64,000 nucleotides of DNA from Patescibacteria group bacterium (GCA_041737355.1 JBGSRW010000008.1:24466-88465); one strand, 5' to 3'; numbered from the stretch's first letter, positions 238 through 58,257 are shown. The notes: generated by a model not told the origin, from the letters alone. A program made the numbers and translations.

Positions 238-1866
238 ATGATTAAAAATTTGCTGAACGGAGAATCTAAAACAATTACCGGGGCTGCTCTTCTTTTGGGA
301 GCAGCTTCTTTGGCGTCCCGTTTTTTGGGAGTTATCCGCGACAGGGTTCTGGCCGGACAATTCGGGGCGGGCGATACTCTCGATGTTTATTACGCCGCCT
401 TCCGTATCCCTGATTTTATTTTCAATCTCCTGATTTTGGGCGCTCTCTCGGCCGGCTTCATTCCAATTTTTACCGCGGCGCTTTCTTCAGCGAAAGAGAG
501 GGGGGATAATTTTGGCAAGGCGTGGGATATCGTGAGCGGACTGATAAACATAATGGGCATTCTTTTAATTTTTCTTTGCGGTTTGTTTATCGTTTTAAGC
601 CCTTTTATTGTTCCGGTTATCACTCCTGGTTTTGGCGCGGAAAAAATGGCACTGACCGTGACAATGACCCAGATCATGATGCTTAGTCCGCTTTTTTTGG
701 GTTTGAGCAATATTTTCGGCGGAGTTCTCCAATCCTTCAAAAGATTTTTTATTTATTCCCTGGCTCCTATTTTTTATAATCTCGGTATTATTCTCGGAGC
801 TTTATTTTTTACCAAATGGTGGGGAATTTGCGGTTTGGCGGTCGGGGTAATTCTTGGGGCGATCGCCCATATGCTGATCCAGCTACCGGCTGTTGTTTCC
901 CTGGGTTACCGTTACCGGTGGATTTTCAATCTTGCCGACCAGAATGTCCGGCAAATCGGCCGGCTTATGATTCCCCGGACTCTCGGTCTGGCCGTTTCTC
1001 AAGTCAATCTGGTGGTGATGACAGTTATTGCCTCGACTCTTGTTCCGGGAAGTCTCGCCGTTTTTAATCTTGCCAACAATCTCCAATATTTTCCGATCGG
1101 AATCATCGGTATTTCTTTTGCCGTCGCCGCTTTTCCGGTTTTGGGGGAATGCGCGGCCGGCGGGCGAAAAGAGGAAATGGTTAAAAATTTTTCCCACTCC
1201 GTCCGGCAGATTTTGTTTTTTATCGTTCCAGCCGCTGTTCTGCTTTTGGTCTTGCGTGCCCAAATTGTTCGCGTTATTTTTGGATCGGGTGAATTTGATT
1301 GGGAGGATACGATTTTGACCGCCGATACTTTGGCTTTTTTTGTTACGAGTTTGTTTGCCCAAGCCCTGGTTCCGCTTCTTGCCAGATTTTTTTACGCGTT
1401 GCAAGATACTAAAACGCCCTTTTTTATTGGTTTATTTTCAGCCGTAGTTAATGTTTTTTTAGCAATATATATGGCCGAAAGATGGGGCGTGATCGGCCTG
1501 GCCGCGGCTTTTTCGGCTTCCAGTATTTTAAATTTTTGTCTTCTTTGGATTTTGCTGCGGGTAAAGTTCGGTTCGCTTGATGAGAAAAGGATTCTCGGTT
1601 CGGCATTTAAAATCAGCGTGGCCGCGGTTCTGATGGCGTTCAGTATCCAGGGCATGAAAGCCGCTCTCGCGCCATTCGTTGATATGCAGACTTTTTTGGG
1701 TATTTTTGGTCAAGGTTTGGGAGCCGGCTTGGTTGGCCTTATTGTTTTCGTTATTTCCGGATTTCTCCTCGGTTCAAGGGAAATGTTCGCGGTCCGCGAC
1801 GCGGTGAAGTACAAATTATTCAAAATAAAAAGGCCGATTATTAATGATGAGGAGGGGCAAAGGTAA
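238..1866 (+). CDS. murJ: Lipid II flippase MurJ (MviN family)
   Basis: 542 aa multi-TM protein. N-terminus AALLLGAASLASRFLGVIRDRVLAGQFGAG...YYAAFRIPDF is the MurJ/MviN signature. Confidence 0.85.
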   Translation: MIKNLLNGESKTITGAALLLGAASLASRFLGVIRDRVLAGQFGAGDTLDVYYAAFRIPDFIFNLLILGALSAGFIPIFTAALSSAKERGDNFGKAWDIVSGLINIMGILLIFLCGLFIVLSPFIVPVITPGFGAEKMALTVTMTQIMMLSPLFLGLSNIFGGVLQSFKRFFIYSLAPIFYNLGIILGALFFTKWWGICGLAVGVILGAIAHMLIQLPAVVSLGYRYRWIFNLADQNVRQIGRLMIPRTLGLAVSQVNLVVMTVIASTLVPGSLAVFNLANNLQYFPIGIIGISFAVAAFPVLGECAAGGRKEEMVKNFSHSVRQILFFIVPAAVLLLVLRAQIVRVIFGSGEFDWEDTILTADTLAFFVTSLFAQALVPLLARFFYALQDTKTPFFIGLFSAVVNVFLAIYMAERWGVIGLAAAFSASSILNFCLLWILLRVKFGSLDEKRILGSAFKISVAAVLMAFSIQGMKAALAPFVDMQTFLGIFGQGLGAGLVGLIVFVISGFLLGSREMFAVRDAVKYKLFKIKRPIINDEEGQR

Positions 1867-3644
1867 TGCGGGAAAAAATTAGAAATTTTTGTATTATTGC
1901 TCATATTGATCACGGAAAGTCGACTTTAGCCGACCGTCTTTTGGAATTTACCGGAACGGTAGCTAGGCGGGATATGAAAGATCAAATGCTTGACATGATG
2001 GATCTTGAACGCGAAAGGGGAATTACCATCAAGCTTCAGCCGGTGCGCATGGATTACAAAGAACATATTTTAAATTTAATTGATACGCCAGGACACGTCG
2101 ATTTCAACTATGAAGTCTCTAGGTCACTTGCCGCCGTGGAAGGCGCGCTTCTTTTGGTTGATGCGACGCAAGGTGTCCAGGCCCAGACGCTCGGTAATTT
2201 ATATTTGGCACTGGAACAGAATCTAACAATCATTCCGGTAGTCAATAAAATTGATCTTAAAAATGCCGAAGTGGAAAAAACCGTCCAGGAAATTACCGCC
2301 CTGATCGGCTGCAAAAAGGAGGAGGTAATTTTGGCTTCGGGGAAAAGCGGGGCCGGAGTTCCGGAAATTTTGGAAGCAGTTGTTAATAAAGTTCCTTCGC
2401 CAAAAGGAGAAATAAGTAAACCGCTGAGGGCGTTGATTTTCGATTCAAAGTACGACGACTACAAGGGAGTCGTCGCTTATGTCAGAGTTGTGGACGGCGA
2501 AGTAAAAAGGGGGGATAAAATATATTTGGCGGCCACCAAAATCGAAAGCGAAGTTTTAGAGGTTGGATATTTTAAACCAAAGTTTGTTCCGGCCGGAAAA
2601 TTATCAGCCGGGGAAATCGGTTATATTGTGACCGGGCTCAAGGAAATAGAAAGATGCCGGGTCGGCGATACTATAACGGTTCACGATCCGGATCTGACAG
2701 TCCAAAGTTTACCGGGGTATAAAGAAGTTAAACCGATGGTTTTTGCCGGAATTTTTTGCAAGGAAGGGGACGATTTTCCGAAACTGCGCGAAGCAATTTT
2801 AAAATTAAAATTGAACGATGCGGCTCTGACTTTTGAAACCGAGCAGTCCAAGGCGCTCGGCTTCGGTTTTCGCTGCGGTCTTTTGGGTTTGTTGCATCTT
2901 GAAATTGTGGAAGAGCGTCTGCGGCGAGAACATAATCTTGACGTGATTGTTACCGTGCCGTCGGTAGCGTACCGTATTACCAACAATAAGGGAGAAGTGT
3001 TGATTATTAAAAGTCCGTCGGAATTGCCCGACATGAGCCATATCAAATTGATCGAAGAGCCGTGGATTAAAATTGATGTGGTTTCTCCGAGCACCTACAT
3101 CGGCGGTATCATGCAAATGGTGCAGGAAAAGAGGGGAGTATATATCGACACGGAATATTTGGATGCCGACCGGGTTATCTTGCATTATGAAATTCCTCTC
3201 TCGGCAATTCTTGTGGATTTTTACGATAAATTAAAAAGTGTGAGCTCCGGCTATGCTTCATTGAATTACGAATTTTTCGGATATAGGGAGGCCGATGTTT
3301 TGAAAATGGATATTTTGGTGGCGACCGAACCGGTTGAGGCGCTCGCGACAATCGTCTACCGCGACACGGCCCAGGATGTCGGGCGGAGAATTGTCCAGTC
3401 TTTAAAAAAAGTTTTGCCGCGCCAGATGTTTGAAGTTAAAATCCAGGCGGCGCTTGGCGGGAAAATTGTCGCCTCGGAACACTTGCCGGCGATGAAAAAG
3501 GATGTGACAGCCAAGCTTTATGGGGGAGATGTAACAAGAAAGAATAAATTGCTTGAAAAACAGAAAAAGGGCAAGAAAAAGATGAAAGCGTTGGGCAAAG
3601 TTGACATTCCACCTGAGGCATTTTTAGCGGTTCTGAAGAAATAG
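1866..3644 (+). CDS. lepA: Elongation factor 4 (LepA)
   Basis: N-terminus IRNFCIIAHIDHGKSTLADRLL with GTPase motifs, 592 aa, LepA-specific C-terminal domain. TAATG overlap with the murJ stop. Confidence 0.95.
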   Translation: MREKIRNFCIIAHIDHGKSTLADRLLEFTGTVARRDMKDQMLDMMDLERERGITIKLQPVRMDYKEHILNLIDTPGHVDFNYEVSRSLAAVEGALLLVDATQGVQAQTLGNLYLALEQNLTIIPVVNKIDLKNAEVEKTVQEITALIGCKKEEVILASGKSGAGVPEILEAVVNKVPSPKGEISKPLRALIFDSKYDDYKGVVAYVRVVDGEVKRGDKIYLAATKIESEVLEVGYFKPKFVPAGKLSAGEIGYIVTGLKEIERCRVGDTITVHDPDLTVQSLPGYKEVKPMVFAGIFCKEGDDFPKLREAILKLKLNDAALTFETEQSKALGFGFRCGLLGLLHLEIVEERLRREHNLDVIVTVPSVAYRITNNKGEVLIIKSPSELPDMSHIKLIEEPWIKIDVVSPSTYIGGIMQMVQEKRGVYIDTEYLDADRVILHYEIPLSAILVDFYDKLKSVSSGYASLNYEFFGYREADVLKMDILVATEPVEALATIVYRDTAQDVGRRIVQSLKKVLPRQMFEVKIQAALGGKIVASEHLPAMKKDVTAKLYGGDVTRKNKLLEKQKKGKKKMKALGKVDIPPEAFLAVLKK

Positions 3645-3766
3645 ACTTAAAAGTTTAAAAGAGAAAAATCACCTGAGAATGGTGATTTTTTGTTTATTTA
3701 TGACAATTTATTTTGGCTAAAATAAGCCAAAAGATAGGATTATTTTAGAAATAGTGTCAAAAGCCC

Positions 3767-3795
3767 TTGACAAAATCTAAGATACGTGTTATACT
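3767..3795 (+). promoter_or_regulatory. Sigma70-type promoter, TTGACA-17-TATACT
   Basis: TTGACA at 3767-3772, 17-nt spacer, TATACT at 3790-3795. Lies in an AT-rich stretch directly upstream of the high-GC island. Confidence 0.5.
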
Positions 3796-3859
3796 TACTT
3801 GTTAAGCTGAAATAGGCTTAAAATAAAAAAAGTGCTTGTCGTGTCAAGTTCTTTACAAA

Positions 3860-4044
3860 GTGCCAGAGAAATTTGGAGGAGGAAGTCTTCGCGGACCATT
3901 TATTGGTAACCGCGTGACTCGGTGTTCGGTTGAGTTAAAGCTCGGTTTTCCCGTTTGGGACTACTAAGATTCAACTCGCCAAAACGCCATTGCTGTTCCA
4001 ATGCTAATTGGAGCGGCGCGCTCACCTCCAAATTCCTCTGGCAC
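3860..4044 (+). other. About 185-nt stem-closed structured element (candidate cis-regulatory leader or small RNA) upstream of ORF 4131
   Basis: GTGCCAGAGAAATTTGGAGG (3860-3879) is reverse-complementary to CCTCCAAATTCCTCTGGCAC (4025-4044) with one mismatch over 20 bp. Internal local hairpins are present (CGCGGACC...GGTAACCGCG). No ORF on either strand. Lies between the promoter at 3767 and the RBS at 4117. Confidence 0.3.
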
Positions 4045-4130
4045 ATCTCCGTGAAAAATCGGAGGGCCAAAGGTCAGACTGTGGATGTTCCCGGTCTGAT
4101 TTTAGTAAACGCAAATAAGGAGGTTTTCTG

Positions 4131-5384
4131 ATGGAGAACGGCAGCAAGGAGATTGTGGTTGGCAAGGAGCCGACGGCTACGGCCGAGGCGTTCCTCGAGC
4201 CGCCGAGCGAGGACGACGAGTGGTTGCTCCTGGATTTCAATCCGGCGGCGACCGAGTCCGCGCCGGCCGTGCCCGAGACGCCGAAGCCCAAGCCGCCGCG
4301 CGTCTGCGCGATCTGCCAGCACCCCTCCGGGAATTCGGTGGGCAAGATCAAGCGCGGGCGGATCGCCGAGGTCGAGCACGAAGGGATGAAGCTGCTCACG
4401 CTCGAACCAATCTGCGAACCGTGCGGCGAGAAGTTGCCGCCCGAGGAGCGGAAGAGGCTCTTCAAGGCGGGGTACCTCATCTCCCTGATCGGCGAGAAGA
4501 ACCGCGAGATGCGCGAGTTCGAGGCGGCCAAGGCCTACTGGGCTGCGGTCTTCGCCGGTACGGCAGAGCGGATGCCCGAGGCTCGCAAGACGCCCGAGGA
4601 GATGCTCTCCTGCGGGGTGCCCGGCTGCCCCCGCTGTCACGATCAGGTCGGCCACAAGGTCGGCCACTTCGTGGCGATGACGATCGGCGGCATGCCGACG
4701 CTTCTCGGGGTCTGCTCCTTCCAGGCCGCGGCCTTGGCACAGTGCGGGGTCGAAAAGAAGGGCATCGTCGTGACGACGAAGTTCTCCGTGGCCGCCCCGA
4801 TCGTCGAGGCGGAGAACGCCAGGCTCCAGGCCTTCGAGAAGGCCAAGAGTTTCTGGCTCGCCGTGGCCGAAGGCGAGGCGGCGGTCGAGGCGCGGGCCGA
4901 GAAGACCGAGCGCGGCGACATCTACCGCTGCGGCGTCCCCGGCTGCAAGTGCCGGGAGCACGGCGACCGGCCGGTCGACTACTTCGTGGTCTTGGACGGC
5001 CAGCCCGAGATGCCCATCGCGGGTGTCTGCCGATACCAGTATGCGGCGCTCCGGACCTCCGGGGTGAAGATCTTCGCCGCGAACAACAACGACGGGATGG
5101 GCCTCGCGCGGTGCGCCAAGCACCGCAACTGGCTCCTCGGCCAGGCCAAGAGGGCCATCCGCGACGTCCGGAGGCCGGACGGAATCGGCGGCGGTCTCTC
5201 CCGTTTCCGCTCGCCCGAAGAACAGGCGCGGATCCGCGAGGAGAAGCGCCGGACGTTCGAGGAGCGCGAGGCCAAGCGCCGCTCCCGGCAACTCGAGCGG
5301 GCCAAGGCCTCCTCCAGCAAGGCCGGCTGCGGCAAGAAGGCCAGCAGCAAGAAGGGCGGCAAGGGCGGCGGCAAGAAGCACTAG
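4131..5384 (+). CDS. Hypothetical high-GC Cys-rich protein with N-terminal zinc ribbon, two tandem CxxxxCxxC...C modules and a Lys/Arg-rich C-terminal tail
   Basis: RBS AAGGAGG at 4117-4123, 7 nt before the ATG. High GC with GC-rich third codon positions. Zinc ribbon CAICQHP...CEPCGEK. Duplicated module CGVPGCPRCHDQ...GVCSFQAAAL and CGVPGCKCREHG...GVCRYQYAAL. Tail KKASSKKGGKGGGKKH. Antisense and alternate-frame ORFs are Arg/Pro-rich artefacts. Confidence 0.6.
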   Translation: MENGSKEIVVGKEPTATAEAFLEPPSEDDEWLLLDFNPAATESAPAVPETPKPKPPRVCAICQHPSGNSVGKIKRGRIAEVEHEGMKLLTLEPICEPCGEKLPPEERKRLFKAGYLISLIGEKNREMREFEAAKAYWAAVFAGTAERMPEARKTPEEMLSCGVPGCPRCHDQVGHKVGHFVAMTIGGMPTLLGVCSFQAAALAQCGVEKKGIVVTTKFSVAAPIVEAENARLQAFEKAKSFWLAVAEGEAAVEARAEKTERGDIYRCGVPGCKCREHGDRPVDYFVVLDGQPEMPIAGVCRYQYAALRTSGVKIFAANNNDGMGLARCAKHRNWLLGQAKRAIRDVRRPDGIGGGLSRFRSPEEQARIREEKRRTFEEREAKRRSRQLERAKASSSKAGCGKKASSKKGGKGGGKKH

Positions 5385-5407
5385 CTGGCCGGCCGCTCTC
5401 CCACCAA

Positions 5408-5542
5408 TTTGTTCTTTTCTTGGAGCAAGTAGTCTGTGCAATGCAGACACTGTTCGTCAATCACTCTAAGGTGAACGGCGACAGGATCTTGCTCCAAGTC
5501 CTTTTCCTCCAAATCAGCGTAAGTTGGTCTGGAGAAAAGGGA
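5408..5542. repeat. Direct repeat copy 1 (135 bp), 24 nt after the stop of ORF 4131-5384
   Basis: Near-identical to 6107-6236 apart from a 5-nt indel. Contains a 10-bp inverted repeat TTGGAGCAAG...CTTGCTCCAA, an inner GTCTG/CAGAC hairpin and a second CCTTTTCCTCCA...TCTGGAGAAAAGG stem. Confidence 0.9.
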
Positions 5543-5597
5543 ATTAGCTCTTTGGCAATTTCGGCGCATAGCGCCGTAGAAAGAAAGGAGATAGTTG

Positions 5598-5930
5598 ATG
5601 GTTCAGGTTCTGATGCTGGCCCTGTTCAGCGTCGCCAAGCGCGACGAACGCGAGGCGAGCGACGAGGGCAGTGAGACCGACGCGGTCGAGCTGCCCGAGG
5701 ATTCGGTCAACTGGCGGGCGGTTCGTTGGCTGGGCGTCGCGAAGATGCCGCGCCGTCGGGGTGGTCGGGCGGCCAACCGTTGCCTTGCCGACATCCCGCC
5801 GCCACCGGTTCGTTTCTCGCGCGAAGGGTTTGACGGACTTCATTCGTGGAAGCGTCAGACTCCGGCCCGCCGTCAGTGGGCCAAGCATCTTCGGAAATCT
5901 TGGGGGCGCGGAAAGAAGGTGGAGGTATGA
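5598..5930 (+). CDS. Hypothetical high-GC small protein (110 aa)
   Basis: RBS AAAGGAG 6-7 nt before ATG 5598. High GC with GC-rich third codon positions in the 5' two-thirds. Stop overlaps the next start (ATGA), indicating translational coupling. No recognisable domain. Confidence 0.35.
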   Translation: MVQVLMLALFSVAKRDEREASDEGSETDAVELPEDSVNWRAVRWLGVAKMPRRRGGRAANRCLADIPPPPVRFSREGFDGLHSWKRQTPARRQWAKHLRKSWGRGKKVEV

Positions 5931-6106
5931 AGAAGGAGTGTCGCAAGAGCGTGCCGGAGGTCAAGACGGGAGAGGGTGTTTACATCCTCCGCGTCATGCC
6001 CCAGCCGTCCGTCTGCGCGCACGAGGCGGTCCGTCCCTCCACCCGGCCGATCATACGCTCCGCCATCAAGATCGTCGGCCAGCACGGCCGCGACTGTCTC
6101 CCATAG
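5927..6106 (+). CDS. Hypothetical high-GC small protein (59 aa), translationally coupled to ORF 5598
   Basis: GGAGG 6 nt before ATG 5927. ATGA start/stop overlap with the upstream ORF. Stop TAG at 6104-6106 is immediately followed by repeat copy 2. Confidence 0.35.
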   Translation: MKKECRKSVPEVKTGEGVYILRVMPQPSVCAHEAVRPSTRPIIRSAIKIVGQHGRDCLP

Positions 6107-6236
6107 TTTGTTCTTGGAGCAAGTAGTCTGTGCAATGCAGACACTGTTCGTCAATCACTCTAAGGTGAACGGCGACAGGATCTTGCTCCAAGTCCTTTTC
6201 CTCCAAATCAGCGTAAGTTGGTCTGGAGAAAAGGGA
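6107..6236. repeat. Direct repeat copy 2 (130 bp), starting the nucleotide after the stop of ORF 5927-6106
   Basis: Near-identical to 5408-5542. Both copies diverge from each other right after ...GGAGAAAAGGGA. Confidence 0.9.
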
Positions 6237-6286
6237 TTCCAAAATTTTTTAGCCATTTTTACGGCTAGTCAGATCCCACGCAAGGG

Positions 6287-6316
6287 CACCGCCAGTTGGC
6301 GGTGTTTTTGTTTTTA
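6287..6316 (+). terminator. Rho-independent terminator closing the high-GC island
   Basis: CACCGCCAGTTGGCGGTG hairpin (7-bp stem) followed by TTTTTGTTTTT. Confidence 0.6.
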
Positions 6317-6319
6317 AAA

Positions 6320-6330
6320 TGTGCTATAAT
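6320..6330 (+). promoter_or_regulatory. Extended -10 promoter TGTGCTATAAT
   Basis: TGnTATAAT with no obvious -35. The same TGTGCTATAAT 11-mer recurs at 8644, 17284 and 26870, with close variants at 10271 and 16112. Confidence 0.4.
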
Positions 6331-6360
6331 AGTCCAATATTTATTTTACGTAATGTTTTT

Positions 6361-6459
6361 ATGAAAAAGAAAAATTTGCAGAAAATAGTATGGATAATTG
6401 TCTCAGCTATTGTAGTTTTTTCCATGGTTGTCTGGACAATCGGGCCAATGCTGTATTAG
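6361..6459 (+). CDS. Possible 32-aa hydrophobic micro-protein (MKKKNLQKIVWIIVSAIVVFSMVVWTIGPMLY)
   Basis: ATG 30 nt downstream of the -10 at 6325-6330. KKK followed by a single TM-like helix. No Shine-Dalgarno. Below the ORF-track length cutoff. Confidence 0.2.
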   Translation: MKKKNLQKIVWIIVSAIVVFSMVVWTIGPMLY

Positions 6460-6489
6460 CCGCGGAGTTTGTAATTTGTTATTAAAAGT

Positions 6490-8220
6490 ATGAAGTGGAA
6501 AGTCGCCGAACCGATCAGCGAAGAATTCAGAAATAAATTTCCGGAGATCGATCCGGTTATTTTGCAATTACTCGCTAACCGTGGGGTAAAAACCCAGGAA
6601 CAGATTGATGAATTTCTGTATCCAGATTACGGGCCTGATATTCACGATCCGTTTTTATTTTTGGATATGGAAAAAGCGGTCGAGCGGGTTTTCCGGGCGG
6701 TGGAGAAAGGAGAAAAAATTACGGTTCATGGCGATTACGACGCCGACGGAGTTTGCTCGGCATTGATCGTAGTCAGTACGCTCGAAGCCATGGGTGCTAA
6801 AGCCGAGGTTTATCTGCCGCACCGCGAACTCGAAGGGTATGGACTGAATATGCAAACAGTTGAAGAGTTGGGGAAAAGAGGGACAAATCTTATTATTACA
6901 ACCGACTGCGGCATCAGTAATCGGGAAGAGATAAAAAGAGCGGTTGAACTTGGAATGGAAGTAATTGTCACCGACCATCATGCCGAGCCGCTTAATTTGC
7001 CCGAGGCAGCTTTGGCAATTATCAATCCCCATTTGGCGCGAGAAAAGTATCCTTTTAAGGAATTGTCCGGGGCGGGAGTAGCTTTCAAATTCGTTCAGGG
7101 GATTTTACATAAAATAAAAACAACGGCGCCAAAAATAGAATTCAGGGAAGACCCGGAGGGATTTGAAAAATGGCTTCTGGATCTTACGGCTATTGCCACG
7201 ATTGCCGACATCATGCCCCTCTTGGGCGAGAACCGGACGATCGTAAAATACGGCTTGATTGTCCTGAACAAAACCAAACGGCTGGGATTGAAAAAAATGA
7301 TTGATTCGCTGGGCTTGAACAAGGCAAAATTGCTTGACGCAAGAAACGTATCTTTTCAGATTAGTCCGCGGCTGAACGCGGCCGGCCGGATCGACCACGC
7401 CAACCAGGCCTATGAACTTTTAAAAACATCGGACGGGAACGAAGTTGATAAATTGGTCGCGGCCCTGAATAAAACCAACGAAGACAGGCAAGCGCTTTCC
7501 GAGCGCGTAACGGCCGAAGCCAAGGAGAAAATAGGAGAAGAGGTTGGCGAAAGAAAAGTTTTGTTCGCCGTGGGTAAGGGTTGGCCGATAGGTATTGTCG
7601 GATTGGTAGCCGGGAAAATAGCCGATAATTTATGGCGGCCGACTTTTATTATGGCAGAAAAAGAGGGGAACATTATGGGGTCGGGAAGGAGTATTCCGGA
7701 ATTTGATATTATGGAAGGGCTCAGGGAGGCGAAAGAATTTTTGTCACATTACGGCGGACACGCCGGAGCCTGCGGATTTACCCTGAAAAATAAAAAAGAT
7801 CTGAAGAGGTTTGAAAAGACCCTGGAGAAATTTGCTGAAAAAAAATTAGCCGGCTCGGAACTTGTCCCAAGCCTGAATATTGACTCGGAAGTTAAACTGG
7901 AAAAAATAAATTGGGAGCTTTTCGAGCTCTTGGAAAAATTTTCACCATTCGGGAAGGGGAATGAGCGGCCGAGATATTTGGGGAGGGGTTTGACGGTCGA
8001 AAGCTTTGAAGGGGTGGGAAATAATGGAAATCATTTACGCATAAATTTGAGCCACGAAAACGGCCAAAAGAAAAAATTTATAGGTTTTTGTTTTGGAAGC
8101 TGGTGCGAGAAATTAAAAGCGGGAGATAAAATTGATGTAGTTTTTGAAATTGATGTTAATGAATGGAACGGGAACAGGGAACTGCAGATGAAAATTATTG
8201 ATTTAAAACATAGCGAATAA
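6490..8220 (+). CDS. recJ: Single-stranded-DNA-specific exonuclease RecJ (DHH/DHHA1)
   Basis: Core GDYDADGVCS...TDHH with DHH and DHHA1 motifs, 576 aa. Confidence 0.9.
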   Translation: MKWKVAEPISEEFRNKFPEIDPVILQLLANRGVKTQEQIDEFLYPDYGPDIHDPFLFLDMEKAVERVFRAVEKGEKITVHGDYDADGVCSALIVVSTLEAMGAKAEVYLPHRELEGYGLNMQTVEELGKRGTNLIITTDCGISNREEIKRAVELGMEVIVTDHHAEPLNLPEAALAIINPHLAREKYPFKELSGAGVAFKFVQGILHKIKTTAPKIEFREDPEGFEKWLLDLTAIATIADIMPLLGENRTIVKYGLIVLNKTKRLGLKKMIDSLGLNKAKLLDARNVSFQISPRLNAAGRIDHANQAYELLKTSDGNEVDKLVAALNKTNEDRQALSERVTAEAKEKIGEEVGERKVLFAVGKGWPIGIVGLVAGKIADNLWRPTFIMAEKEGNIMGSGRSIPEFDIMEGLREAKEFLSHYGGHAGACGFTLKNKKDLKRFEKTLEKFAEKKLAGSELVPSLNIDSEVKLEKINWELFELLEKFSPFGKGNERPRYLGRGLTVESFEGVGNNGNHLRINLSHENGQKKKFIGFCFGSWCEKLKAGDKIDVVFEIDVNEWNGNRELQMKIIDLKHSE

Positions 8221-16188: not shown

Positions 16189-16368
16189 GAAAGGAGGTGA
16201 AAGAATGTTTAAAAATAAAAAAGGTTTCACTTTGATCGAATTGTTGGTGGTTATCGCCATCATCGGTCTTCTCTCGACTTTGGCGGTCGTTGCCTTGAGC
16301 AGCGCCAGAACCAAAGCCAGAGACGCGAAAAGAACTGCCGACATGAAGCAGGTTCAGACAGCCATGGA
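16189..16368 (+). repeat. 180-bp direct repeat copy 1: RBS plus first ~55 codons of pilin gene 1
   Basis: Near-identical to 16740-16919 (a few mismatches). Covers the SD, signal peptide and conserved N-terminal helix. Confidence 0.85.
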
Positions 16369-16739: not shown

Positions 16740-16919
16740 GAAAGGAGGTGAAAGAATGTTTAAAAATAAAAAAGGTTTCACTTTGATCGAATTGTTGGTG
16801 GTTATCGCCATCATCGGTCTTCTCTCGACTTTGGCGGTCGTTGCCTTGAGCAGCGCGAGAACCAAAGCCAGAGATTCAAAACGCGTGGCCGACATGAAGC
16901 AGGTTCAGACAGCCATGGA
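16740..16919 (+). repeat. 180-bp direct repeat copy 2 (5' part of pilin gene 2)
   Basis: See 16189-16368. Confidence 0.85.
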
Positions 16920-25740: not shown

Positions 25741-26808
25741 ATGCGAATGCCAAAGGGTAGAAGGCCGCACACTGTGCTTTGCGCTAACCGGCGAGCCGGC
25801 TGGCGCTTTGAACAATGGTCGGAGTTGGACCAGTGGAGCCTCGAGGCCGGCATCAGAACATATGCCCTATCAGAGATCGAAGAGCTCGATCCCGTCATCG
25901 CGAATTTCGATGACGAGACGCTGCTTCTCCTGATTTACGGCGGGGACGGAACCCTGCTTCAGATTATGAACAGCTTGCTCCGGCGCAAACGGCGCAAGGG
26001 CAAGCCAAAGCCGAAAATGCCGATCATTGTGCCCGTCGGAGGAGGCACGATGAAACGCCTGCCGCGCTGGGCGCTTTGGAACGGCACGCCGGCTGAAAAT
26101 GCCATGACAGCCCTTGAACTTTTCGAGGGCAAGCGTCTGCCGTACCTGCCTCTTCCCTTGCTAAAAGTGGAGTGGGGTGGGCAATGCTACTTCGCGGTCA
26201 CTCTCATGGCTGGAGCCTTGGTTCGTATCATGCAGGAGTACTCGCGTTTCAAGACAACGCCGGCAATTGCCGGACTTTTTTCCGCCGGAGCCTTGGCCGC
26301 CGCGGCCTTTGACAGGCCAAAGTTTTTCACCAGACTCTACGGGCAAATCCGGGCCAAGGTGACCTCCGACGGAGAGGTTCTCGGGACCGAACGGTTCATT
26401 GTCGTGATTCGTGACGTTCTCGAGGAATTGATTTTCTCGATCAAACCGTACAAGGGAATCTGCGCGCCGGGCCAGTCCTTCTCTCTGGCCTACGCCATCG
26501 ACTACCACGAGGTGGCGCGAAAGTTTCCTTGGATTGTTGCGGGAGCGGTTCCCGGCAACGACCCCCGGTATTTCAATCGGCCGGCAAGTTTAACCGTAAT
26601 CGAGCCGCACGAGGAGATTCCCTTTACGCTCGACGGCGAATACTTTACGGCCAAGCCGGGCGAGACCATCAAGGTTTCCCAGGGGCCGGAAGTAAGAGTT
26701 GCCGTTAACCCGTTCGTTCATCTGACTCTTCTGAAACGGTTTTTGAATCGCGGCAGAAGCTTGAAGGAGGTCGTGAGTTACATTTTTCCTACGCCGAGAA
26801 AGAACTAG
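25741..26808 (+). CDS. Lipid kinase, diacylglycerol-kinase catalytic domain family (YegS/DgkB-like), high GC
   Basis: Signature LLLIYGGDGTLLQIMNSL (GGDGT motif of DAGK_cat). RBS GGAGGAAGGAG. GC much higher than flanking genes. Confidence 0.7.
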   Translation: MRMPKGRRPHTVLCANRRAGWRFEQWSELDQWSLEAGIRTYALSEIEELDPVIANFDDETLLLLIYGGDGTLLQIMNSLLRRKRRKGKPKPKMPIIVPVGGGTMKRLPRWALWNGTPAENAMTALELFEGKRLPYLPLPLLKVEWGGQCYFAVTLMAGALVRIMQEYSRFKTTPAIAGLFSAGALAAAAFDRPKFFTRLYGQIRAKVTSDGEVLGTERFIVVIRDVLEELIFSIKPYKGICAPGQSFSLAYAIDYHEVARKFPWIVAGAVPGNDPRYFNRPASLTVIEPHEEIPFTLDGEYFTAKPGETIKVSQGPEVRVAVNPFVHLTLLKRFLNRGRSLKEVVSYIFPTPRKN

Positions 26809-39947: not shown

Positions 39948-40814
39948 ATGCAAAAAAAGGAGATGTCTCCTGAAAGTGTGAGCGAGTGCGCTCGTCTGAC
40001 TGAAGCGGAACTGGCCAACTTGGGCGTTGTCCTTTCCGCCTACCGTTCTTTCCGAGGCGACCGGCGTCGACATATCGCCTACGTCACGATGCCGATCACG
40101 ACCGGCCGGCGGTTGCGCGACATCCTGACAACGCGCCACGCGAAGAGCGCCGCAGAACTTGCGGCCAAAATCGGCAGAGAGGCCTTTTTTGACCTCGTGA
40201 TCAGACCAAACATCGCGGAGGGAATTGCTTTTGCCGACAGAGTCGCAGCAAGGGATTCACTGCTTTGCGTTGCGCCTTCGGTGTTCAGTGCCAGGTGCTG
40301 GCAATGGTCGCAGGATGCCTACATGTCCCTTTGGTACCGCGTTCTGGGAGAAATGGCCGGAGCGCATTATCTCATGGACGGCTGGGAATACTCCGTCGGC
40401 GGCGTGAAAGAAGCGATGTTTTCCATGGCCATGCAGTGGCGCATCTTCCGGCGCTACAACATCCACAAGATGGCGCAGGCCTGGGGTCTAGAGAATTTTC
40501 ATCCCGGCATGAGCCCGCAAGCGGAAATAGCCGAGCTTGAGCGCATGTGGAGCATCCGCCTTTACGACGAACAGGGCAAGGAACTTCGCATCGATCAAAT
40601 CCTGGCGATGGTTGTTCGCGCAATCAAGGAGCTGGCAAAAAACGGCTTGCCGTACGAGGATCTGCTCGGCCCCGCCCGGAACCTGAAGGGGATGCCCATA
40701 CTGTCACCGCTTATCGGCGGCGGCAACCGGTATGACGAGCCGTTTGTTCCGGAAGTGACGGATGCGTACGTGATGGCGGCAGATGAGCTCGTGGCATTCG
40801 AGGCCGCCCATTAA
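39948..40814 (+). CDS. Hypothetical high-GC protein (288 aa), unknown function
   Basis: RBS AAAGGAGGGAGGG. Very high GC. Alternate frames are Arg-rich artefacts. No recognised motif (YVTMPITTGRR...). Confidence 0.6.
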   Translation: MQKKEMSPESVSECARLTEAELANLGVVLSAYRSFRGDRRRHIAYVTMPITTGRRLRDILTTRHAKSAAELAAKIGREAFFDLVIRPNIAEGIAFADRVAARDSLLCVAPSVFSARCWQWSQDAYMSLWYRVLGEMAGAHYLMDGWEYSVGGVKEAMFSMAMQWRIFRRYNIHKMAQAWGLENFHPGMSPQAEIAELERMWSIRLYDEQGKELRIDQILAMVVRAIKELAKNGLPYEDLLGPARNLKGMPILSPLIGGGNRYDEPFVPEVTDAYVMAADELVAFEAAH

Positions 40815-57930: not shown

Positions 57931-58257
57931 ATGGGACCGGAAATTGCGATCCAGTTGGCCTTGCGCCAGAAGCTGGCAGCTTTCGGCATCAGGAACCACG
58001 TCGAGCCGGAGGTGATTCCGAACGCTTTGAATGCGGTTCGACTTCTGGGTCACAGCCAGATTCTTGTCTTGGGTAGCTGTAGCGCGTCTTCTCCATGGTC
58101 AAAGACCACGGATGAGCCGATCGTGGCTCTGACTTGCAGGATGATCACGGACATGCAGCTCAAGGGAGAGAGGATCGAAATCACAACCACGCCCGACACG
58201 TCCGAGGAACGCGAGAAGACTGGCTTCCGCCGGATCGACCTGCGCCTCAAGAAGTAG
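57931..58257 (+). CDS. Hypothetical high-GC protein (108 aa)
   Basis: Own promoter, RBS and terminator. High GC. No recognised motif. Confidence 0.5.
   Translation: MGPEIAIQLALRQKLAAFGIRNHVEPEVIPNALNAVRLLGHSQILVLGSCSASSPWSKTTDEPIVALTCRMITDMQLKGERIEITTTPDTSEEREKTGFRRIDLRLKK

Follow-up and report, generated by a model that had tools for sequence, protein, structure and literature searches.

Stable stem-loops right after cistrons are known from the repetitive extragenic palindrome (REP) of malE-malF, the RNase III sites of T7, the positive retroregulator of Bacillus thuringiensis cry and the puf hairpins, and plausibly serve to define and protect 3′ ends; these are either dispersed (REP) or simple hairpins free of sequence requirements. 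In other systems, such as rsr (Ro) with Y RNA and TnpB or IscB with their omega/reRNA, a protein gene adjoins its cognate structured RNA, sometimes present in two copies, a conserved closing helix binds the protein, and protein and RNA are co-distributed. In flavivirus 3′ untranslated regions (3′ UTRs), structured modules (exoribonuclease-resistant RNAs, xrRNAs, and dumbbells) are tandemly duplicated, with compensatory changes driving the copies apart or homogenisation keeping them alike. The attC sites of chromosomal integrons (e.g. the VCR of Vibrio cholerae) are imperfect palindromes of about 120-130 nt directly 3′ of small, often orphan open reading frames (ORFs), in a single orientation and highly similar within a genome. 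The DNA analysed here, a stretch of 64,000 nt from a Patescibacteria group bacterium (GCA_041737355.1, JBGSRW010000008.1:24466-88465; “the window” hereafter), carries two repeats of about 130 nt whose layout recalls these systems and which lie in the operon of an orphan gene called X. Each repeat is a copy of a structured sense-strand RNA domain, probably a cis-acting 3′-UTR or intercistronic module tied to X. By analogy, it would be most like the intercistronic/3′ mRNA elements or the protein-adjacent cognate RNAs (rsr-Y RNA, TnpB-reRNA). Unlike the former, however, the X element has several helices, an invariant helix and an invariant loop, and is linked to one protein family; as to the latter, searches with X detected no resemblance to Ro, TnpB or IscB, the Y RNA and omega-RNA models gave no match, and a separate release of the RNA is hypothetical here. 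It also differs from the flavivirus modules in belonging to a bacterial chromosomal operon and in showing no known xrRNA fold signature. The element is a member of no described family, and no earlier description of it was found in the literature; it is a structured RNA module linked to a gene family.

The repeat finder showed 126 nt of complete identity (5417-5542 and 6111-6236, 100%, at a spacing of 694 nt), to which TTTGTTC (5408-5414 and 6107-6113) adds on the 5′ side of both copies, beyond a 5-nt indel (TTTTC, present in copy 1 only); the copies end at A5542 and A6236. The initial annotation had placed copy 1 (5408-5542) 24 nt past the stop of the 417-aa ORF and copy 2 (6107-6236) at the nucleotide right after the stop of a coupled ORF pair, and had described the copies as alike except for a 5-nt indel. 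All of this was borne out, with stops at 5382-5384 and 6104-6106. Its 10-bp inverted repeat does exist, but is 11 bp long (CTTGGAGCAAG at 5419-5429 and CTTGCTCCAAG at 5488-5498); two of the hairpins of the element lie inside this inverted repeat and the third after it, at 5499-5542. The core pattern of the element matched twice in the window (0.00 matches in 100 shuffles), and a covariance model run over the 64 kb with filters off found the two copies only (143.5 and 139 bits), the next, unrelated match scoring 12.5 bits.

Both copies were modelled on the + strand. In copy 1, the inverted repeat forms helix P1 (11 pairs) and is followed inwards by hairpin P1a (5432-5448, loop GCAAU) and by P2/P2a (5450-5485), while P3 (17 pairs) occupies 5499-5542; in copy 2 (the 139-bit match), P1 lies at 6113-6123/6182-6192 and P3 at 6193-6236. 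The region 5400-5560 folded at -62.1 kcal/mol on the + strand (z -6.1) and at -52.3 kcal/mol on the - strand (z -3.9). U-G/G-U pairs recurred at four positions (35:41, 117:223, 105:235 and 114:226) which are C-A mismatches on the opposite strand; these pairs and the better + strand fold therefore identified the element as a sense-strand RNA.

The folding of homologues had been proposed as a check on the initial annotation, and structural covariation was found. RNAalifold on a MAFFT alignment of 14 copies gave 41 pairs, 16 of them with compensatory changes. When 18 copies were aligned to the model, 98.0% of the cells of the 41 pairs were paired (93.2% in shuffles, 39-49% with slid partners), and both sides had changed in 18 of the 41 pairs (1-8 with slid partners), as against 6.6±1.6 in a shuffle control in which none of 500 reached 18, the aligned sequences being phylogenetically related and paralogous copies included. 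Compensatory changes thus exceeded the controls, as expected of a conserved structured RNA. Examples were seen in P1a (GUCUGU/GCAGAC to GUCCGC/GCGGAC, and GGUUCGU/GCGAACC in locus L023), and two compensating insertions lengthened P1 in L004 (loci of the genome and metagenome collections are numbered L001, L004 and so on). Other parts did not vary: 9 of the 11 P1 pairs, the loop GCAAU, and, among further unpaired nucleotides, the AAU junction between P2 and P2a and the GAU before the 3′ strand of P1 were invariant among the 18 copies. P2a had a GNRA loop in several copies. Insertions of 34 nt and about 85 nt occurred at the tip of P3, which marks the element as non-coding, and its GC content was 42-48%. 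An insertion rich in (A/G)CGAAT short repeats was noticed at the P3 tip of copy 1 in L001 (7386-7430) and another in the 5′ leader of L014 (about 3925-4000); the two genomes thus have such insertions at the tip of a hairpin of the X operon, but not of the same hairpin.

Rfam 15 gave 0 matches in the window at the gathering thresholds; with E values up to 10, the best sub-threshold matches in 3600-6500 had at most 22 bits (E at least 2), and none of them fell on the elements in sense. No tRNA or tmRNA was found. Regarding a pseudoknot or kissing partner of the loop GCAAU, no conserved AUUGC was present in the same transcripts. A pairing of CCAAC in the 5′ flank with GUUGG in P3 was also considered; it is present in many copies, yet inconsistently, and is not claimed.

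A scan of genome and metagenome collections with the core pattern returned 15 stretches: 12 true elements, all of them 6-40 nt past the stop of a GC-rich X homologue, and 3 chance matches without X context. The genome records with the element were Patescibacteria, and the X contigs shared the synteny murJ-lepA-X-recJ-rnhA. There was a single element locus per genome; contigs as long as 567 kb and 150 kb matched there only. Most loci had one unit (X, one element, tail and terminator: L004, L009, L012, L014, L016, L018 and others), and two units (X, element, linker, ORF2, ORF3, element) were found in the window, L001, L007 and L019. Related genomes thus contained the additional copies expected by the initial annotation, but not alternative cassette content: X was always there, with or without ORF2 and ORF3. 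The co-occurrence of element and X reached distant members of the family: next to an X homologue with 36% identity (L023) the element scored 111.8 bits and its P1a had new compensatory changes, while in L026 it scored 32.1 bits (E 6e-7), P1 and P3 being kept and the inner hairpins different. The initial annotation had also offered a structured 3′-UTR or small-RNA module duplicated with its cassette as an explanation, and this is the one that covariation, strand asymmetry, position and phylogenetic distribution favoured. A dispersed extragenic repeat (REP/BIME, ERIC, BOX, Correia/MITE) was rejected on the 2 copies in 64 kb, both at the X locus. A phage origin was rejected as well: viral contigs (IMG/VR) contained neither an X relative nor the element, and PHROGs and PADLOC gave no match.

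In three genomes, a MITE-like inverted repeat (GTCATTGCGAG...CTCGCAATGAC) was present between the stop of X or ORF3 and the element (L023 1053-1075, L024 2942-3026 and L026 about 1095-1160), as would be expected if insertions favour this site or if the genomes share a small mobile palindrome.

The identity of the two window copies is best understood from the comparison of two-unit loci. Copy 1 and copy 2 of one genome were 0.64-0.71 identical in L001, L007 and L019, and 1.00 in the window, whereas orthologous copies 1 were 77-95% identical and orthologous copies 2 67-98%. The duplication of the element is therefore older than these species. For copy 2 of the window, identity reached 95% with the first copy of L019 but no more than 70% with the second copies of L019 and L001. 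It resembles the copy 1 of L019 and not its copy 2, and was therefore overwritten by copy 1 through gene conversion, in a tract of about 130 nt coextensive with the element; the tail downstream is still in the “copy 2” context. An assembly artefact is an unlikely source of the identical copies, because the corresponding copy 2 of sister genomes is only about 70% identical to copy 1, so that reads would not cross-map. The locus is a natural case of concerted evolution of an RNA module, diverged with compensation in three genomes and homogenised in a fourth. The identical direct repeats could in principle also mediate loss or amplification of the 694-bp unit.

Another locus with both ORFs, L024, had a different arrangement. 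An ORF in which X and ORF2 were fused (P0008; 1752-3370) was followed by ORF3, the element, the linker and a second start of ORF2, and from there to the end of the contig the sequence matched the fused part at 100% identity; either the unit has truly been rearranged in tandem, or the assembly contains a loop.

These data fit a scheme in which each cistron block ends, on its 3′ side, in an RNA module, the element, that would be recognised specifically. In its fold, the invariant P1 closes two hairpins, with the long P3 hairpin after them, and the domain opens the 3′ UTR of X-family genes in a clade of Patescibacteria. The ancestral unit comprises a strong promoter, a structured leader of about 270 nt with an attenuator-like hairpin, the GC-rich X and the element, and ends with a small hairpin and a terminator. 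One subclade has a module made up of linker, ORF2 and ORF3 between two elements, so that copy 1 became intercistronic; in the window genome, copy 2 was overwritten by copy 1, and the copies are identical because of this recent conversion. The element is probably a protein-recognised 3′-end module of the mRNA, and the likeliest factor to recognise it would be X itself, with its zinc-ribbon-like modules and basic tail, or alternatively another factor. The module may set the fate of the mRNA through 3′-end protection and stability or through processing, possibly with feedback on X.

Some points weigh against this scheme. X is a putative RNA-binding protein only, and its predicted fold matches nothing solved. 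Transcription, transcript ends and processing are predicted from promoter and terminator sequences. P1 could also be so strictly invariant because it pairs with another partner or acts at the DNA level, neither of which was detected. The significance of the shuffle control is overstated, because the sequences are related and include paralogous copies. Finally, the stability part of the proposal is the less convincing one, because a simple block to exonucleases needs less sequence conservation.

Four other explanations were considered; from the most to the least probable, the element would be a non-coding RNA (ncRNA) that is released, a stabiliser or RNase III target of a generic kind, an RNA that is catalytic or resists exonucleases, or a DNA recombination site. 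According to the first, the element would be the precursor of a stable RNA that is released from the 3′ UTR or the intercistronic region and acts in trans as the ribonucleoprotein partner of X, with no role in cis, by analogy with Y RNA and rsr (Ro). The exclusive co-occurrence with X, distant members included, agrees with it, as do the invariant closing helix and loop, typical of protein-binding ncRNAs, and the two copies per operon in one subclade; with the conserved hairpins and terminator after the last copy, an RNA of about 200 nt derived from the 3′ UTR is conceivable. However, the promoter scan found no separate promoter before either copy, no processing signal was identified, and the ribosome-binding site (RBS) of ORF2 directly after copy 1 suggests an intercistronic role in cis, so that we regard a released RNA as unlikely. 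A generic 3′-end stabiliser or RNase III-type intercistronic hairpin with no dedicated partner appears less probable still. It would account for the position right past stop codons and ahead of the next RBS or terminator, and for the long stable helices (17 pairs in P3, 11 in P1), in an operon which seems built for RNA stability (the leader with its Shine-Dalgarno-like (SD-like) GGAGGAGGAA, the GC-rich coding regions). Such elements vary freely as long as pairing is kept, though, and here 9 of the 11 P1 pairs and several loops and junctions were invariant; moreover, an ordinary terminator hairpin is already present downstream. As P1 and GCAAU are invariant despite synonymous sites that appear saturated, specific recognition fits better than a generic stabiliser. 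The three-way-junction-like fold with invariant unpaired GCAAU, AAU and GAU, the GNRA loops in several P2a and the single copy after each cistron block could also be read as a self-cleaving ribozyme cutting after each block, or as an xrRNA-like element that resists exoribonucleases and shields the RNA downstream of it. This was considered very improbable, as no ribozyme or xrRNA family matched in Rfam at E values up to 10 and no conserved pseudoknot partner was found.

Least credible of all was a DNA recombination site, either attC-like in a small chromosomal integron or an att site duplicated by the insertion of ORF2-ORF3. Units of ORF and repeat do alternate, their number varies (one in L004, L009 and others; two in the window, L001, L007 and L019), L024 may be a rearranged array, and homologous recombination between the identical direct repeats of the window could excise the 694-bp unit. 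On the other side, the locus is single, with two copies at most and the same gene content everywhere, ORF2 was found only at the X locus, and the viral contigs had no copies. No tyrosine recombinase or integrase was present in the 19 window ORFs scanned. These included three of the four upstream and, over the next 24 kb downstream, all fifteen with 250 aa or more; a short ORF upstream, six shorter ones downstream and the genome beyond the window lay outside the scan. The flanking genes were murJ and lepA upstream and, downstream, recJ, rnhA, an orphan, pilM, a type IV pilus ATPase gene, pilC, pilins, prepilin peptidase, ligA and gatA; L001, L004 and L014 had the same synteny, without integrase. 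The element borders (TTTGTTC...AAAAGGGA) contained no R″ (RYYYAAC) or R′ (GTTRRRY) core sites, as GTTCTTT does not fit GTTRRRY. The substrate folded in attC recombination is the bottom strand, whereas the X element needs the G-U pairs of the sense strand for its pairing. Thus, of three features looked for (IntI with attI and Pc, attC core sites, and a variable array), none was found; in these respects, and in the lack of R″/L″/L′/R′ boxes, the X locus differs from chromosomal integrons, as it does in an element sequence conserved between species and not merely within an array. The integron-type cassette array proposed in the initial annotation was accordingly discarded, and so was its proposal that serial insertion had duplicated an att site: what lies between the copies (560 nt, 5543-6106) contains two tiny orphan ORFs and no integrase, and what is repeated is the whole folded domain of 130 nt and not a short crossover core. 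The alternative that the repeat is a by-product of tandem duplication, with ORF2 and ORF3 as decayed duplicates of X, was also rejected, as BLASTP gave nothing better than E 0.01.

The X operon forms a 2-kb island of about 69% GC in a 45% GC genome, with lepA (1866-3644) on one side and recJ (6490-8220) on the other, and from its sequence it would be one transcription unit on the + strand, from a promoter at 3767 to a terminator at 6304. The putative promoter (3767-3795) has TTGACA, a 17-nt spacer and TG-TATACT (11 of 12 matches and an extended -10), and the sequence TTGACAAAAT...TATACT was kept in the 9 of 9 full-length orthologous loci. It is followed by a leader of about 270 nt (3860-4133) beginning with a structured domain (3860-4044, + strand) of four helices enclosed by a closing helix of about 20 bp. 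The closing helix (3860-3883/4022-4044, GCCAGAGAAAUUUGGAGG/CCUCCAAAUUCCUCUGGC) is nearly invariant and pairs an SD-like GGAGGAGGAA with an anti-SD-like UCACCUCC. RNAalifold on 9 loci gave 75 pairs in the leader, 21 of them with compensatory changes (10.5±2.0 in shuffles, 0 of 500 reaching the observed value), and 98.2% of the cells were paired, against 32-51% with slid partners. Downstream of the domain there is a small hairpin and then a terminator-like hairpin with a U run (4070-4107, + strand; AAGGUCAGAC...GGUCUGAUUUU, the T run being read directly from the sequence), missed by a simple terminator scan because its loop exceeds 8 nt. This hairpin (helix 7; 12 pairs) was 100% paired, and 5 of its pairs varied on one side (U-G to C-G). 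It is a possible attenuator, which would make the leader a regulatory one of attenuator or riboswitch-like type; the leader had no Rfam match. The 3′ element and the 5′ leader thus add two covariation-supported RNAs without Rfam counterpart, tied to a tiny orphan family; to our knowledge, few regulatory RNAs have been characterised in Patescibacteria.

Gene X (4131-5384, + strand, RBS AAGGAGG at 4117-4123) encodes an orphan, Cys-rich protein of 417 aa, with three zinc-ribbon-like Cys modules and a Lys/Gly-rich C-terminal tail. Its relatives were 9 among 5.8e9 proteins and 18 clusters among 1.84e9 representatives. The AlphaFold2 model (pLDDT 73.7) had no fold match in PDB or BFVD, the lone Pfam hit was sub-threshold (DUF6788, E 0.017, 15.7 bits vs. 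a cut-off of 27.2), and X itself matched nothing in PADLOC or PHROGs. The stop of X was TAG in every gene examined, after a conserved ...KK(R/H) C-terminus, and no conserved read-through frame followed. An antisense ORF at 4074-5450 was dismissed as a gene, since its codons all begin with S in that frame, which explains why it is open.

The linker between the first element and ORF2 (5543-5597, + strand), read directly from the sequence and kept in L001, L007, L019 and L024, contains a small hairpin (GGCGCAUAGCGCC) as well as the ORF2 RBS. ORF2 (5598-5930, + strand) encodes an orphan protein of 110 aa, has a G+C content at third codon positions (GC3) of 0.74 (G 48, C 33, T 22, A 7) and occurs only in two-unit loci, from which all of its 4 homologues come. 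ORF3 (5927-6106, + strand; 59 aa, GC3 0.86), also an orphan, overlaps ORF2 at ATGA and has orthologues in L001, L007, L019 and L024. Neither ORF2 nor ORF3 matched a family in Pfam, PADLOC or PHROGs. The 3′ tail (6237-6316, + strand) consists of a small hairpin (UUAGCCAUUUUUACGGCUAG), an intrinsic terminator (CACCGCC-AGUU-GGCGGUG, 6287-6304) and a T run, and was kept after the last element in all loci. A conserved small ORF of 32 hydrophobic aa (MKKKNLQKIVWIIVSAIVVFSMVVWTIGPMLY; 6361-6459), with a TGTGCTATAAT promoter of its own, was present between this terminator and recJ in every orthologous locus examined.

The composition of the coding regions is anomalous. In X, GC1, GC2 and GC3 (first, second and third codon positions) were 0.64, 0.49 and 0.93, compared with a mean GC3 of 0.48±0.07 for the genes of the window; Lys was encoded by AAG in 35 of 35 cases (27% in background genes) and Glu by GAG in 84% (29% in background genes), and Gly, Ala, Arg and Pro are over-represented in the protein. 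All X orthologues examined had a GC3 of 0.88-0.96, in genomes with 0.35-0.53, and across the operon coding regions (those of the window, and X of L001, L004, L007, L009, L012, L014, L016, L018, L023 and L025) the range was 0.74-0.96. Distant relatives were less uniform, one having 0.80 (0.48 in the adjoining RNase J gene) and L026 0.58. The composition changed abruptly where the coding regions end, with 35-50% GC in the adjacent genes and in the untranslated elements. At fourfold-degenerate sites of conserved amino acids, pairs of X orthologues differed mostly by 33-55% (20% in one close pair), with G↔C accounting for 57-82% of the differences in the pairs tallied; lepA differed by 42-67% between the same genomes. 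Synonymous sites appear saturated, and from the fourfold divergence beside that of lepA it follows that X diverged in place for as long as its neighbours, with A and T excluded from synonymous sites.

Codon bias for high expression was rejected as the cause of the high GC3, since G- and C-ending codons were both increased, and so were GC1 and GC2. Recent horizontal transfer was rejected too, on the conserved synteny and untranslated regions and the apparently saturated fourfold sites. The candidates are selection at the RNA level, biased gene conversion at a recombination-prone locus, or decoding in a GC-rich partner. The drivers of GC content in bacteria are openly debated, and a constraint limited to coding regions could inform this debate. 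A bolder proposal, which we put forward as speculation with a very small chance of being right, is that the X operon is a “protected mRNA” system, with its coding regions of about 70% GC (GC3 above 0.9) due to RNA-level selection and with X binding its own message at the 5′ and 3′ domains. It would then be a Gag/Arc-like or Ro/Y-like ribonucleoprotein, the element would be a packaging or recognition signal marking each cistron block, and, in the boldest version, a GC-rich partner organism of these episymbiotic bacteria would receive the message or particle and decode it.

Raised GC3 values (0.68-0.74, vs. a genome mean of 0.48) were also found in three other ORFs of the window without Pfam match above threshold (25741-26808, 39948-40814 and 57931-58257). 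The two inspected, at 39948 and 57931, had promoter- and terminator-like sequences of their own. These ORFs may be of foreign origin, or may show the composition effect of the X operon in weaker form. The window also contained a direct repeat of 180 nt, 95% identical (16189-16368 and 16740-16919) and unrelated to the X-operon element, which belongs to two type IV pilin paralogues arranged in tandem and covers their RBS and conserved N-terminal region.

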